The notes below the pieces were generated by a model. That model did not search any database. It saw nothing but the letters and a program-made list of their open reading frames with translations, and was not told where the DNA came from. 64,000 nucleotides of DNA from Sminthopsis crassicaudata (Eukaryota), in assembly GCF_048593235.1 (NCBI RefSeq), contig NC_133617.1:171886937-171950936 (forward strand). Reading direction: 5' to 3'. The position numbers and the translations under genes were made by a program. Position 1 is the stretch's first letter; every line of letters starts with the position of its first letter. This document shows positions 15,310-61,825 of this stretch, one piece after another.

Positions 15310-15800
15310 CAATATTCAGTAACAGAAAAGGAAGAGGTAGCAGTACCTATGGTGACATCTGACAGATTCTGTCTTCCCAAGGGTCATTCATTTCCTTATA
15401 AAATAACTGCAGGTGCTACTTTGCTAGTAGGTTGGTGATCTAGAGTCACTGTTATTCTCAGAGCCCCAGGGCTAATTTATTCATCACTAGATAGGTGAGA
15501 CGATTGATACTGGTAAGTGACAGGGATGGTGGATCATTTCTCTACTAAAGTTGTTCTTCCTAATGAGGGTCCAAAGTAGAATCATGATTATCTGGGGGGA
15601 GGTAGGGGAGAAGTGAGGAGAGAGAGAAGGTAGGAAGGGAACTGTAATTCCTAGGCTTCTTGGGCTCTGTCCTCTGCTGTCTTTATGAGGGAAGCATCTA
15701 TTTCAAAGAAAGATGGTGCTCAAGATGATAACAATGGTTTGACCCAGAAAACACATAGCTTGCTATTTAAATTATGTGGCCTTGTTTGCCCTACTGGTAT
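15310..15800 (+). mobile_element. Tentative upstream RT portion of the Gypsy fossil
   Basis: Very decayed, correctly ordered fragments: YSVTEKE, KG(F)IH..TAGA, SLDR, FSTKVVL, YVALFAL (cf. YSLSEPE, KGFIRPS.SPAGA, LLDRL, FTKLDL, YLVMPFGL). Confidence 0.35.
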
Positions 15801-15969
15801 CAGTTGATAGTTGGTGGTGGCAATGGTAGAGATAGTGGACCCTTTCTCTACAAGATTTGCTCCTATGGATAAGGGTTGAGGAAAATAACAATTGAATAGT
15901 TCCTGAAGACCATTTTATGTCCTCTTGAATGGAGGGTAGAAGTAAGACTAAGGGGAAGAAAAGTAATTA

Positions 15970-16175
15970 TTCTGTCATCAAGTATATATTAAGCAACTAC
16001 CATGTTCCAGGTTCTGTACTAAGTAGTAGGAATAAAAAGAAAAACAAAATAAAACAGAACAATAGCCCTACTCTCAAGGACCTCTCATAGTTCAATGAGG
16101 GAGACAACAGATTACAACTATACACAAACAAGATGTATATAGGATAAATATGACAGGGAAGGCACTAAGAATAAG
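15970..16175 (-). mobile_element. L2 3'-end fragment interrupting the Gypsy fossil
   Basis: tattaagcaactaccatgttccaggttctgtactaagt...ccctactctcaaggacctctcatagttcaatgagggagacaac is the antisense L2 tail. Confidence 0.7.
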
Positions 16176-16289
16176 GAGGACTTATCTATTTCAAAGAATC
16201 TATCCAGCTAATCCAGACTCATCTTCCTTCTTATACTACTGTCTCTAGATCGAACTGAAGAAGTATCACTTTTTCCTGAAAGTGAAAAT

Positions 16290-17660
16290 TGGAATATGCC
16301 ATGAAGTTGTACAGGATTAAGATGAAATCCCTTCAAAGTCCCTCAAAACTGAAAAGACTTGCAACTATTTCTGGGTGCCACCTTTTTTGTTTTGTGTTTT
16401 GTTCTCTAATAGCATTCCTAGTAAAATTTTTGCAGAATATTTTTAGTAGTCTGCTACAGACTCCCAAGCTAAACCAGTTTATGCCTGCACTCATCCCAAC
16501 TTGTCTTGACGCATGCTGGTCATTTGTGGAAGCAGGTTCTTCCAATATAATGACAAAAAAAGCATAAAATCTACTAATCTTCTCTGCTCCTTCCATATAT
16601 CTACTATTCCTGCAAGTTAAATTCTGATGGATGGGAGCTTCTAGTCTTAAGGAAATGTCTGAAGCCTCAGCATACCATAAGAGTGAATTCAACATCTAAT
16701 CATTATGCAAACTGACCATACTAGAAATACCTTTGAATGCCTCAAAAGATGATTCAGACTACATCTTCTCTTTTCAATAGATTCAGTTTATTTTTTTTAA
16801 TCTTTCTTGTCACAGGAAGACCCTTATATCTAGTTATTATTATCTACCTATCATGAGGGCTCTAAACTGGGGAGGGCTCTATGTAAGTTGGGATATTACA
16901 ACTACATTTTCAATTTTGCACATTCCCAAAGAATGCTAGCGCTGGAGAATTGTATCAATGCCATGAAATTCTTCATGATTCTTCATATTACCACCTACAA
17001 CTTTTGATAATCTTGATTCTGGCATGATATCAAGTAAGATTACGGCTATCAAGCTCCATTCCCAAGTAAAGGACCCTATAGGAAAACTGTAGACCTGTTG
17101 TGGGCATTCACTGGCATTCAGACTACAGTGGACCAAAACTCCATTGGAATTTATTACAGACTTACCCAAATCCCAGTAACATGATGACATCTTATCTTAA
17201 CTAAAACAAAATCAAAGACTTCCTCCTCTGGCTTAGACTTCTCCTACTGCTGCCAAGTTCCTCCGAGCCCTCATACTACATATCTGATTATGGCCCTGTT
17301 TTTACTTTCCACTTTTTAACCTTGTTCTTTCTTGTCCTGTGAAGTTTATTAAAATCACTGTGTACTTATATACAGTTCAGTTCCTTTCAATGCAACTAAA
17401 TCTCCATTTCTGGTATTTCTTTTCCCTCATGACATGGACTAAGTTCCCCATATTGTTATCATAACACTATATGATATAATAGAAAGAACTGGATTTGGAG
17501 TAATATGATTCCCCTTTCCATAACTTACCTCTCCCAATCAAACTGATGATCAAATTTTCCAAAAAATTCTTGAATAATGCCCCTTGTTCTTGATTACACC
17601 AAGATGGTTAGCATAAACATTTCTTCTTGCATCTGAATTCTCGTAAAATAATTCTACCTA
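16290..17660 (+). mobile_element. Ty3/Gypsy LTR-retrotransposon pol fossil (RT thumb - RNase H - integrase)
   Basis: Ordered motifs: KDLQLFLG 16353-16376; PALIP..FVEAGSS 16484-16543; PYIYYSCKL ending 16619; ELLV 16635; TDH 16711-16719; LFNRF 16770-16784; PIGKL 17075; LEFITDLPKS 17144-17173; PTAA..LILHI from 17243; QTDDQ..ILE 17539-17574; EFS*NNS 17635-17655. Many stops and frameshifts. Confidence 0.85.
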
Positions 17661-18879
17661 GAGGAAGACCTTCTAAGACAACAAACTTCCTATCCATGTT
17701 TTTTTTTTTTTTCCCAGAAAGTATACCATATCATAGACCATGGTCTTTAATGTGGTATGATGGAACAACATGAAAGAGTTTTCACCTCAAAAAGCTTTGT
17801 CAAATTCTAGCTCTTCTCTGTCTCTCTTTTACTTAATTTAGAAAAGTCAGAGATTAGACTGAATAATCTCTGAAGACACTTTTTCCATTCTTGATCCCAT
17901 AATAGCTAGAAGCAACCTAGTCTGAACTACAGGTGAGTATTTTTAAAATCCAAAAGTCAACTTTATACCTTGAGAAAAAAAGACTCATTAAATGTCATAT
18001 CAAAGTCATTGGAAAATACATAGACTTCAGTCTTAAGATATGCTTGTCTTACATGAACTATATCAAAAATAATTACTACTGAAATTAGAAATTCAGCATT
18101 ATAATTTAAGCAAATTAAAACTAAACTTTTTCAAAATTGGTCTATTTTTACTTAACTTATAATTTCAAACAAGTAAATTAATATTTTCCTTTCTTAAAAA
18201 ATTATGGGGGGAAAAATGCTCCTGGGCTAAGACCCTGTAAGCAGAGTTTAGCCTGAAGCCAATTTTTACAGCTGAGTTATAAACCCCTGAAATAGGAGTT
18301 CATAATGGAAACAGCTGCTCAACCTTAGCTATTGCGGGTGCCACTATAATAAAAACTGCAGGAGTTCACATTAACAATGGCTTCCCCTTACACTCTTTCC
18401 TGTTACCCATCCATTAACCAAACCACACTACTTAATGGAGGTAAAGGCTACAGCTTTATTCACAACAAAAATAACGAGATAGGCGACTTACAGGTGGTAA
18501 ATAACATATTCCCCAAACATCAGAGTGTACAAACATCCCCTGGAGGGCTGCTCACCAATCTAGGGGATAACATCCCACTCCAATGATTTCCAATTAGGAA
18601 TAACATCCCAGCCCACAAAACACTACTAAGCAATGTCATCTACTTCCTGTTTATTTCTTAAAATGTATTGCACATGCAAAACATGCAAAAAGGAAAGACT
18701 GTGTAAAACAGGAAAAGTTTCATAGGAAAATAATCCACAGTTTTTAATAGTTCTGTCTCTAATGTCCCTGCAGAAATGCACTGAAATAGAGCAATACTCC
18801 ACTCACATTTTTCTGCCTCTCTGTGCTTTAACTCATGGCATTCCTCAAATGTCTTCACCATTGGTCTGCTCTTCCTAAC

Positions 18880-19950
18880 ATCTTATATACTGGCCCAGAT
18901 CCAGCTTAAAAACATCTTCCTCCATAAAATTTCTCTGAATTCTTAACTCCACACTGAGAAATGATGCTTCCCTCCTCAGACTTCTCAAACTACTTTGTGT
19001 ATCTCCTGGGGAATTGCCACCTTTTATTTCCTATTATAGAATCTTTATGTATGTGCCTTATCTCCCCTACTAAATTTTAAGCTCCTTAAGAAGAGGTAGA
19101 CCCTCTTATTCCATATCTAATCCATTCCTCACACAATTACCAAAATGTTTTAAGTAAAGCATAGGTCCAATTGTTATTCCCTTGCTTAATGAGCTCCACT
19201 GGTTCCCTATTTATTACCTCTAAGATCAAATAGAGACTCCTCTATTTGGTATTTAAAATACTTTGCAGCCTAGCCCCAACCTATCTTTCCAGTATTATTA
19301 TATACTAATCCCTTTTAGGGCAGCTAGTTTGATAGTCTTAAATTTGGAGTCAGGAAGACTCATCTTCCTAAATTCAAATCTGGCTTCAGACACTTCCCAG
19401 CTCTGTGATTCCAGGCAAGTCATCCCCATTTGCCTCAGTTTCCTCAGCTATAAAGTGAACTGGAGAAGGAAATGGCAAATTACTTCAGTATCTCTTCCTA
19501 GAAAATCTCAAATAGGGTCATGAAGAATCAGAAATGACTGAAAATGACAACTTCCCTTCAGACACTCCATAACCCAAACTACCCCTCTCCTCATCCTCAT
19601 ACATAACCTGATTCACATCTGTGTTACTGTTGTCTCCCCACTTTCCCATGCCTGAAATGCATCCCATCCTCACCTCCACCTCTTAAAATCTTAGTTCTTC
19701 CTAAAGTTTACCTCAAGTTCTACCTTCTGAGGCCTTTTTTTGATTCCTTCCCCCTACTAAGAAAAATGTCCTCCAAAAATTATCTCAGATACATTTTGTG
19801 TGTAGGTATATTGCATGTATGTGTATTTGCATGCACATACAAATAACATAGGAGATAGATAAAAATAATCTGTATTTTTACCCTGATAGAATGTAAACTC
19901 CCCAAGGAATTTCATTTTTGTATCCCCCATAGCTGATATATAGGATATAT
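18880..19950 (+). mobile_element. L2 3' fragments with a nested Mar1 SINE (about 19317-19550)
   Basis: L2 tail text (aagctccttaag..., gatagaatgtaaactcccc..tttgtatcccc). The SINE head agggcagctag...ggagtcaggaagactcatcttcctaaattcaaatc has an RTE-like tail. Confidence 0.7.
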
Positions 19951-22232: not shown

Positions 22233-22334
22233 TAATTTTGCTAATATTGGTAATAATTTCAAGTAATTTTTAAATTGAGAATTGAGAACCAATTTAAAAA
22301 TTACTTGAAATTATTTCCAACATTAGCAAAATTA
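22233..22334. repeat. 45-bp-arm inverted repeat (2 mismatches, 12-nt spacer)
   Basis: Left arm 22233-22277 taattttgctaatattggtaataatttcaagtaatttttaaattg. Right arm 22290-22334 is its reverse complement apart from 2 positions. Confidence 0.93.
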
Positions 22335-58124: not shown

Positions 58125-58176
58125 ATTAATTTCAACATTTTCACTTCCTCCAAGTTTGATTATGAAGTGTGAACTT
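58125..58176 (-). CDS. Candidate exon (52 nt)
   Basis: Acceptor gttctagttaccttccag, donor AAT|gtaagt. Single open frame xSSHFIIKLGGSENVEIN. Confidence 0.3.
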
Positions 58177-58229
58177 CTGGAAGGTAACTAGAACATTCAA
58201 CAAATATTCTTTAAAAAGTACTTCCCAAA

Positions 58230-59618
58230 ACTGGAAATTAGTATGGCAGAAACTAGGCATGGACCCACATTTAACACCACATACTAAGATTAGATCAAAA
58301 TGGGTCCAAGATTTAGGCATAAAAAACGAAATCATAAATAAATTGGAGGAACATGGGATGGTTTACCTCTCAGACTTGTGGAGGAGGAAGGAGTTTGTGT
58401 CCAAGGGAGAATTAGAGACCATTATTGATCACAAAATAGAACATTTTGATTACACCAAATTAAAAAGTTTCTGCACAAACAAAACTAATGCAAACAAGAT
58501 TAGAAGGGAAGTAACAAATTGGGAAAAAATTTTTACAGTTAAGGGTTCTGATAAAGGCCTCATCTCCAAAATATACAGAGAATTGACTTTAATTTATAAA
58601 AAATCAAGCCATTCTCCAATTGATAAATGGTCAAAGGATATGAACAGACAATTTTCAGATGATGAAATTAAAACTATTTCCACTCATATGAAAGAGTGTT
58701 CCAAATCACTATTGATCAGAGAAATGCAAATTAAGACAACTCTGAGGTATCATTACACACCTGTCAGATTGGCTAAGATGACAGGAACAAATAACAATGA
58801 ATGTTGGAGGGGCTGTGGGAAAACTGGGACACTGATGCATTGTTGGTGGAATTGTGAAAGAATCCAACCATTCTGGAGAGCAATCTGGAATTATGCCCAA
58901 AAAGTTATCAAAATGTGCATACCCTTTGACCCAGCCATACTACTACTGGGCTTATACCCCAAGGAACTACTAAAGAAGGGAAAGGGTCCTGTATGTGCCA
59001 AAATGTTTGTGGCAGCCCTTTTCATAGTGGCTAGAAGCTGGAAGATGAATGGATGTCAATCAATTGGAGAATGGTTGGGTAAACTATGGTATATGAATGT
59101 TATGGAATATTATTGTTCTATAAGAAATGACCAACAGGAGAAATACAGAGAGGCTTGGAGAGACTTACACCAACTGATGCTGAGTGAAACGAGCAGAACC
59201 AGAAGATCATTATACACTTCAACAATGATACTGTACGAGGATGTATGCTGATGGAAGTGGATTTCTTCAACATAGAGAAGAGCTAATCCAATTCCAATTG
59301 ATTAATGATGGACAGAACCAGCTACATCCAGAAAAGGAACACTGGGAAATGAATGTAAACTGTTATTTTTACCTTCTGAATCCAATTCTTCCTGTGCAAC
59401 AAAAAATTCGGTTCTACACACATATATTGTATCTAGAATATACTGTAATATATTTAACATATATAAGACTGCTTGCCATCTGGGGGAGGGGGTTGGGGGA
59501 GGAAGGGAAAAAATCTGAATAGAAGTAAGTGTAAGGGATAATGTTGTAAAAAATTACCCATGCATATGTACTGTCAAAAAAAGTTATAATTATAAAATAA
59601 AATAAAAATTAAAAAAAA
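58230..59618 (+). mobile_element. Young 5'-truncated L1 with stop-free ORF2 C-terminus, 3' UTR, poly-A and 17-bp TSD
   Basis: About 340 uninterrupted codons including the CWRGCGKTGTLMHCWWNC zinc knuckle. TSD aaaaagtacttcccaaa at 58213-58229 and 59619-59635. TT/AAAA endonuclease site. Confidence 0.97.
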
Positions 59619-60861: not shown

Positions 60862-61825
60862 TTTAAAAAAAATAAGCTTTTTATTTTCAAAACATATGCA
60901 CAGATAATTTTTCGACATTGACTCTTGCATAGCCTTGTGTTTCAGATTTTCCCCTCCTTCCCCCCACTTCCTCCCCTAGATGGCAAGCAATCCAATATAT
61001 GTTATACATGTTAAAATATATGTTAAATTCAATATATGTAAACATATTTATACAATTCTCTTGTTTCACAAGAAAAATCAGACCAAAAAGGAAAGAAACT
61101 GATTAAGAAAACAAAATGCAAGTGAACAACATAAAAAAGAATGAGAATGTTGTGTTGTGATCCACATTCAGTTCCCACAGTCCTCTCCTGGATGGAGATA
61201 GCAATCTTTATCACAAGATCATTGGAACTAGCATCAATCATCTCATTGTTGTAAAGAGTCATGTTCATCAGAATTGATCTTCCTATAATATTGATGTTGC
61301 TGTGTACAATAATCTCCTGGTTCTGCTCATTTCACTTAGTATCAGTTCATGTGAGCCTCTCCAAGCCTCTCTAAAATCATCTTCCTGATCATTTATTATA
61401 GAAAAATAATGTTCCATAACATTCATATACCATAGCTTATTCAGCCATTCTCTAACTGATGGGCATTCACTCGCTTTCCAGTTTCTTGCCACTATGAAAA
61501 AGGCTGCCACAAACATTTTTGCACATGTGGGTCCCTTTCCTTCCTTTAAAATCTCTTTGGGATATAGGTCTAAGAGAAACACTGCTGGATCAAAGGGTAT
61601 GCACAGTTTAATAATTTTTTGAGCATAGTTCCAAATTGTTTTCCAGAATGGCTGGATCCATTCCCAATTCCACCAACAATGAATCTATTATTATCCCAAT
61701 TTTCCCACCTCTCCTCCAACATTCATCATTATTTTTTTCCTATCATTTTAGCCAATCTGAGAGATGTGTAGTGATATCTCAGAGTTGTTTTAATTTGCAT
61801 TTCTCTTATCAATAGTGATTTAGAT
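60862..61825 (-). mobile_element. L1 3' fragment (ORF2 C-terminus + 3' UTR), older subfamily
   Basis: ORF 61283-61582 (GPTCAKMFVAAFFIVARNWK..MSRTRRLLY) is homologous to the end of the young L1. Confidence 0.92.

Follow-up and report, generated by a model that had tools for sequence, protein, structure and literature searches.

Background

Mammals are described as having no active Metaviridae, only rare and fragmented fossils being left in their genomes, and the mammalian sushi and PNMA genes are assigned to Chromovirus and to Barthez, respectively (PMC3670739, Table 1). For human, Repbase is reported to hold MamGyp-int together with four internal Gypsy portions without LTRs, X1-X4_LR (PMC5753468, Table 4), and MamGyp-int is given as the source of PNMA2 (PMC9934673). 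Human also carries 83 pre-amniote Gypsy fossils (PMC9004415, Table 5), the same report describing ancient protein fossils as conserved and as lying nearest developmental genes. Among marsupials, three degenerate sushi gag relics have been described in the wallaby (PMC3158469), and Gypsy12-type gag matches, 20 in the wallaby and 14 in the opossum, are mostly remnants (PMC3789554). The available portions of PMC11011659, PMC4408412 and PMC9447858 contain nothing on pol relics.

Here, I describe a pol relic in the marsupial Sminthopsis crassicaudata. The window, namely the whole stretch of 64,000 nucleotides that was analysed (G000:C1:171886937-171950936), belongs to an assembly of 3.24 Gb in 8 contigs; its GC content is about 33% and its CpG frequency 0.07 of expectation. 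A PEG10-like gene and SINEs of apparently marsupial type agree with a marsupial host. In the literature covered, which included few subscription papers and no repeat databases, neither this locus nor any family of chromovirus pol in marsupials was found to be described.

The relic has in common with MamGyp-int, and with the other mammalian Gypsy internal sequences of Repbase and Dfam, that it is ancient, dead Gypsy internal sequence; MamGyp-int differs in being tied to PNMA2, hence to the Barthez clade, by the literature (PMC9934673, PMC3670739). Like the fossils reported by Frith in 2022 (PMC9004415), it lies below the reach of BLAST and is found only by frameshift-aware alignment; those fossils were demonstrated to be old and conserved across species, whereas the analysis of the relic covered one genome.

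Results and discussion

Motifs and reading frames

An initial annotation, made by reading the letters of the window, had proposed eleven motifs of a Ty3/Gypsy pol in the order RT, RNase H, integrase. All of them are present on the + strand between 16353 and 17652, in that order and spread over three frames:

16353, + strand: KDLQLFLG
16484 and 16523, + strand: PALI and FVEAGSS
16602, + strand: YYSCKL
16635, + strand: ELLV
16708, + strand: (Q)TDH
16770, + strand: LFNRF
17075, + strand: PIGKL
17147, + strand: EFITDLPKS, with Glu at the first integrase Asp position
17243, + strand: PTAA
17539, + strand: QTDDQ, with KILE at 17563
17635, + strand: EFS*NN

The copy is broken, as had been supposed from its stops and frameshifts: each of the three frames holds 22-31 stops, the longest open stretch of the + strand is 93 codons, and over the 344 codons that align to pol about 18 breaks of frame and 8 stops were counted, figures which depend on the alignment. 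The replacement of the first catalytic Asp of the integrase by Glu was likewise read correctly, at 17147. Two features had been overlooked, namely a significant block in which the second integrase Asp is retained (ISDYGPVFT, at 17280) and an old repeat adjoining the 5' edge of the relic.

Standard searches and frameshift-aware profiles

Pfam finds no relevant family in any of the six read-through frames, and tblastn with 26 Gypsy proteins reaches a best E of 0.18 at the relic, which is non-significant. Nor is the relic among the matches listed in genome searches with PF17917 (150 matches), with PF17921 (150 matches) and with two RNase H queries (150 and 19 matches); ERV-like frames swamped the genome searches based on integrase. 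Intact Gypsy pol proteins were gathered via a better-preserved relic elsewhere in the genome, and profiles made from them were aligned to the DNA allowing frameshifts.

With the first profile and strict penalties, the relic narrowly outscores every other peak in the window (25.8 bits versus 23.4 for the next). With looser penalties it scores 58.9 bits against 24.3±4.2 (maximum 36.8) for 60 shuffles and a maximum of 38.7 for the 61 other tiles of the window, and it stands above all of these shuffles and tiles under three looser penalty sets. The initial annotation had made the Gypsy identity hang on a significant HMM or TBLASTN match: Pfam and tblastn miss the relic, and a broader, frameshift-aware chromovirus profile detects it, with 72.5 bits against 31.9±5.1 (maximum 45.1) for 40 shuffles. 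The frameshift-aware reconstruction that it had proposed recovers RT, RNase H and integrase in order and above all shuffles, the RT C-terminal half, the RNase H and the integrase core being collinear on one strand and each out of reach of all 100 shuffles. Block windows were picked after the alignment had been seen, so that block figures are optimistic; the whole-window comparison is free of this bias.

Among single references, a frog chromovirus and fish Tf2-like proteins score highest, exceeding the shuffle mean by as much as 25 bits. The protein P0180 of Leptobrachium leishanense (UniRef100_A0A8C5MI22), selected after 108 proteins had been ranked, gives 48.7 bits versus a maximum of 23.0 in 12 shuffles. 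ERV and NYNRIN-like frames of the same genome give at most 3 bits in all nine cases, and by these scores the relic is nearer to Gypsy pol than to retroviral pol.

Anatomy of the relic

Recognisable pol extends over about 1.5 kb, from the RT thumb to the integrase core. Its parts and immediate surroundings are the following:

15969..16179, no strand: old interspersed repeat (4 matches, 61-73% identity, in 718 kb of other loci plus the window)
16170..16196, + strand: possible RT YxDD remnant (NKEDLSISK), whose spacing to the thumb fits; 67 of 300 shuffles reach its score, unsupported alone
16289..16435, + strand: RT thumb including PQNXKDLQLFLG; 31.4 bits, 0 of 300 shuffles
16484..16543, + strand: candidate RNase H N-terminal part; 49 of 300 shuffles reach its score, unsupported alone but collinear in the full alignment
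16593..16875, + strand: RNase H C-terminal half (YYSCKL, ELLV, QTDH, LFNRF, TYHEGSK); 29.9 bits, 0 of 300 shuffles
16956..17103, + strand: candidate integrase zinc-finger region; 42 of 100 shuffles reach its score, unsupported alone
17129..17284, + strand: integrase core, first catalytic block (EFITDLPKS, PTAA); 30.9 bits, 0 of 300 shuffles
17268..17339, + strand: integrase core, second catalytic block (ISDYGPVFT); 21.0 bits, 0 of 300 shuffles
17340..17535, no strand: surplus of about 160 nt; from the second Asp block to QTDDQ the window has 259 nt and P0180 96 nt
17539..17652, + strand: candidate last part of the integrase core (QTDDQ..KILE, EFS*NN); 35 of 300 shuffles reach its score, unsupported alone

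Four blocks are thus significant each on its own, namely the RT thumb, the C-terminal half of the RNase H and the two blocks of the integrase core, the first of which is also the best tblastn stretch at the relic. In the candidate N-terminal part of the RNase H, HPNLS lies in one frame and PALI with FVEAGSS in another. The zinc-finger region admits two incompatible registers, the broad profile and P0180 disagreeing on its placement. The integrase surplus presupposes that the last motifs, QTDDQ and EFS*NN, are real; a SINE suggested there by eye was discarded, its best repeat match (E 0.006) being equalled by a control piece.

The RT signal starts where the old repeat at 15969-16179 stops, which fits, without proving it, a later insertion of the repeat into the RT, no RT being demonstrable upstream. 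I take this repeat to be LINE-2 3'-end-like. RT traces near 15700-15990 in one alignment were not counted, for 38 of 100 shuffles reach the score of the RT N-terminal half. Just upstream of the relic there is also a 49-nt direct repeat (15522-15570 and 15828-15876, 71% identical, 306 nt apart).

No gag or protease signal was found upstream (76 of 100 shuffles reach the score), nor a chromodomain in 17640-19300 (99 of 100), where loss by decay is indistinguishable from absence. No LTR-like pair turned up in 8-26 kb of the window, nor in 7-26 kb, where a search gave three short repeat matches only. The lack of LTRs, gag and protease is expected for an eroded fragment.

Clade placement

Vertebrate chromoviruses, such as P0180 and the 'Tf2' polyproteins of Labeo rohita, have their domain order and motif style in common with the relic; compared with the intact ones, it lacks an open frame, any detectable gag, protease, chromodomain or LTR, and has its first integrase Asp replaced by Glu. 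A single chromovirus-type query supplied every intact reference, and searches for intact references of other Gypsy clades, one of them with a frameshifted query, returned none. Since relics of other Gypsy types score well on chromovirus references too, the assignment to a clade is based on motifs and on the tree.

The motif blocks ELLV, DH.NL and ISD.GP.FT agree with the chromovirus-type relics of the genome and not with its two other Gypsy types. In the tree (35 rows and 280 columns, the profile-guided rows leaning towards the profile, with L133, L139, L140, L141 and most database proteins omitted), the relic groups on a long branch with six marsupial relics and three squamate proteins (support 81/43), and the wider group that holds it is separate from the two other Gypsy types (support 93.6/80). 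L135, itself a chromovirus-type relic, falls outside that group. Membership of the relic in the chromovirus (Sushi-type) clade is accordingly worded as likely, not proven: of the Sushi-like pol first proposed, the Gypsy order of RT, RNase H and integrase was recovered, and the clade is what motifs and tree point to.

Sister relics and other Gypsy fossils

The relic had been presented as a rarity, which was overstated: of the 20 candidate loci examined in the genome, at least eight are chromovirus-type pol relics (L128-L135), and mammalian Gypsy fossils are in print (PMC3670739, PMC9004415, PMC3158469). Five and three of the other loci are Gypsy relics of two other types, three are ERVs and one is without type. 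These counts are lower bounds, further places being listed by the RNase H query. Four of the sister relics are better preserved than the relic of the window:

C1:475.95 Mb (L128): dead chromovirus-type pol, RT signal kept
C3:118.09 Mb (L129): dead chromovirus-type pol
C3:251.23 Mb (L130): dead chromovirus-type pol
C1:116.41 Mb (L132): dead chromovirus-type pol, RT signal kept

Compared with one another over their best stretches (RNase H), these four show 62-69% identity; the proteins that come nearest to them are squamate Gypsy ones. With the first profile the sister relics score 61-162 bits versus 64 for the window relic, six of the eight scoring higher, and seven of the eight are among the top 10 of 19 matches of a separate RNase H query. 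Among the chromovirus-type pol relics of this genome, which are few and dispersed, that of the window is one of the most eroded.

Its kinship to L128-L135 is plausible and weakly supported by the sequences compared. The RNase H motif style, the dead state and a break density of 5-10 per 100 codons are common to all, and the highest residue identity to the window relic is that of L130 (33% of 161 columns). In pairwise DNA comparisons of 18 loci, only L130 matches the window relic in register above its 12 shuffles (55 of 91 bases), weakly and in the RNase H stretch 16629-16720; L143 reaches a comparable score out of register. When a DNA profile was built from the sister relics, it recovered seven of its eight members, each being withheld once, and did not detect the window relic. 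The best reference is a squamate one for seven of the eight sister relics and a frog one for the window relic.

As to the two other dead Gypsy types, L138, L141, L145, L146 and L147 make up one, L142, L143 and L144 the other, each with distinct RNase H motifs; L145 covers the span from RT to the integrase C-terminus. One of the two may correspond to MamGyp-int. Two chromovirus-type RNase H matches lie on the same strand 90 kb apart, at C3:327.74 Mb and C3:327.83 Mb, the second being L135, and weak RNase H matches occur at C4:10.55 Mb, C2:587.74 Mb and C4:144.32 Mb. A 1005-codon open frame at C2:514.93 Mb (L020/L032/L106) with matches to RNase H and to the integrase zinc finger is presumably NYNRIN-like. 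At C1:80.42 Mb (L149/L152) a 425-codon frame has a weak gag match and might, as a guess, be PNMA-MS1-like; at C2:141.15 Mb (L150/L153) a broken gag match has a pol-like signal of 57 bits nearby.

Genomic neighbourhood

At the sensitivity of the DNA search used, the relic is single-copy in the genome, its only match being itself. A scan of 260 kb of flanks found two exons of OFCC1, the nearer one 160 kb from the relic, and not the first coding exon of that gene; exons of the TFAP2 family lie 363 kb away on the opposite side. Because the mouse gene order is Slc35b3, Ofcc1, Tfap2a (PMC3723895), the interval is identified as that between OFCC1 and TFAP2A, to both of which the relic is antisense.

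Within the window itself, a crude exon scan gave no convincing host exon, and Rfam gave no match. Between the window and the OFCC1 exons there are two exon-like open frames without Pfam match, L155:27-374 (+) and L162:6934-7095 (-), the latter on the strand of OFCC1. A stretch of 91 nt at 17842-17932, from a pyrimidine-rich acceptor-like site to a GTGAGT donor-like site, has stops in all three frames and is either a non-coding exon or due to chance. At 22233-22334 there is a near-perfect inverted repeat, whose 45-nt arms are 96% complementary around a 12-nt loop, possibly the remnant of a small DNA transposon. Two minus-strand frames, of 361 codons at 58166-59251 and of 133 codons at 61283-61684, resemble the C-termini of LINE-1 ORF2.

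Part of the segment 15500-18600 occurs in 20 of 24 listed sequencing runs. Two possible RNA runs of the same organism have shares of 0.42 and 0.31, and runs of five other organisms have 0.10-0.17; these shares were not counted as evidence.

Relation to SIRH/RTL genes

PEG10, RTL1 and SIRH12 stem from the chromovirus clade (PMC3670739), probably that of the relic as well; they retain gag-derived frames at other loci, and the relic has none. An RTL1 remnant has been reported in marsupials (PMC2408620), and SIRH12 sits between ENC1 and RGNEF (PMC3158469). In the present genome, a single-exon DIO3-like gene is on C2:373 Mb, hence the relic is not that RTL1 remnant; a PEG10-like gene is on C5:0.75 Mb; and no ENC1 is near the relic, since none of the 54 BACK-domain matches falls on C1 between 110 and 248 Mb. 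PF03732 has three matches in the genome, none at the relic. Orthology to PEG10, RTL1 or SIRH12 is ruled out by position, the neighbours being OFCC1 and TFAP2A, and the suggestion of a pseudogenised SIRH-like locus fails for these three marsupial loci. The suggestion of an undomesticated relative of the SIRH progenitor holds as far as the probable common clade goes; no tie to PEG10 or RTL1 was found that is closer than that of other chromoviruses. Behind the PEG10-like protease and an RT-like frame on C5:0.75 Mb, L151:3850-4540 shows what may be weak collinear traces of an RT end and RNase H.

Origin and alternative explanations

The relic is probably the dead pol of a chromovirus-clade (Sushi-type) Ty3/Gypsy LTR retrotransposon that entered the germ line of an ancestral mammal. 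The element would have inserted into the gene desert that separates OFCC1 from TFAP2A, antisense to both, and would at no time have been retained as a protein-coding gene. Point mutations, small indels and later insertions would then have eroded it, presumably under neutrality, to some 1.5 kb of pol (RT end, RNase H and integrase core) with neither protein nor mobility. Its divergence from the sister set may point to a Mesozoic age.

It is highly improbable that the motifs were merely picked out by chance over three frames in AT-rich DNA or that they derive from an endogenous retrovirus. Such a reading could appeal to the failure of Pfam, tblastn and genome-wide HMM searches, to the thin margin under strict penalties and to the lack of support, when taken singly, for about half of the motifs listed; yet the relic tops the 61 control tiles and all 60 shuffles under three penalty sets, its four blocks are in the correct order and spacing, and the ERV controls stay at or below 3 bits. 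A decayed orthologue of a domesticated SIRH/RTL gene is scarcely credible, even though degraded RTL1 and SIRH12 orthologues are known from marsupials (PMC2408620, PMC3158469): synteny (DIO3-like gene on C2:373 Mb, PEG10-like gene on C5:0.75 Mb, no ENC1 nearby) largely refutes it, and gag, which defines SIRH genes, gives no signal upstream (76 of 100 shuffles).

It is somewhat unlikely that the relic is a copy of a Gypsy repeat already catalogued in Dfam or Repbase, be it MamGyp-int, MamGypsy2-I, X1-X4_LR or a marsupial entry. Repbase does list MamGyp-int and four LTR-less internal Gypsy portions for human (PMC5753468), and some of the three Gypsy relic types of this genome must correspond to catalogued families; identity with MamGyp-int, however, is unlikely for the relic because of the link of MamGyp-int to PNMA2 and the assignment of the latter to Barthez (PMC9934673, PMC3670739), the relic being chromovirus-like, an argument that leaves MamGypsy2-I and X1-X4_LR uncovered. 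Retention as a non-coding regulatory element, for instance as a long-range enhancer of TFAP2A, is very unlikely. The relic does sit in the OFCC1-TFAP2A desert, and ancient protein fossils are reported as conserved and nearest developmental genes (PMC9004415), but it is among the most degraded chromovirus-type relics found, the window has no Rfam match, one supplement of PMC9004415 does not mention OFCC1 or TFAP2A, no literature joining OFCC1, TFAP2A and a retrotransposon was found, and closeness to a developmental gene is expected for much gene-desert DNA.

Conclusions

The decayed, probably chromoviral pol described here shows that an unaided reading of sequence can catch a fossil missed by Pfam and BLAST. 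The chromovirus lineage behind the placenta genes PEG10 and RTL1, as well as the date of its extinction in mammals, has been argued mostly from gag, and pol-bearing relics offer an independent handle on both; the copy in the window is a poor witness, L128, L130 and L132 are better ones, and the family of sister relics is a better lead than the window locus.

A further-reaching possibility, which for the time being is to be held unlikely, is that the relic, together with at least seven sister loci, preserves what is left of the pol of a chromovirus lineage that is absent from the catalogues and comes closest to squamate elements. This lineage would have been active in the germ line of therians or of early marsupials and would have been the source of PEG10, RTL1 and SIRH12. 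If so, marsupial genomes would preserve RT, RNase H and integrase from a progenitor of which mainly the gag is known, and this progenitor could then be placed and dated.
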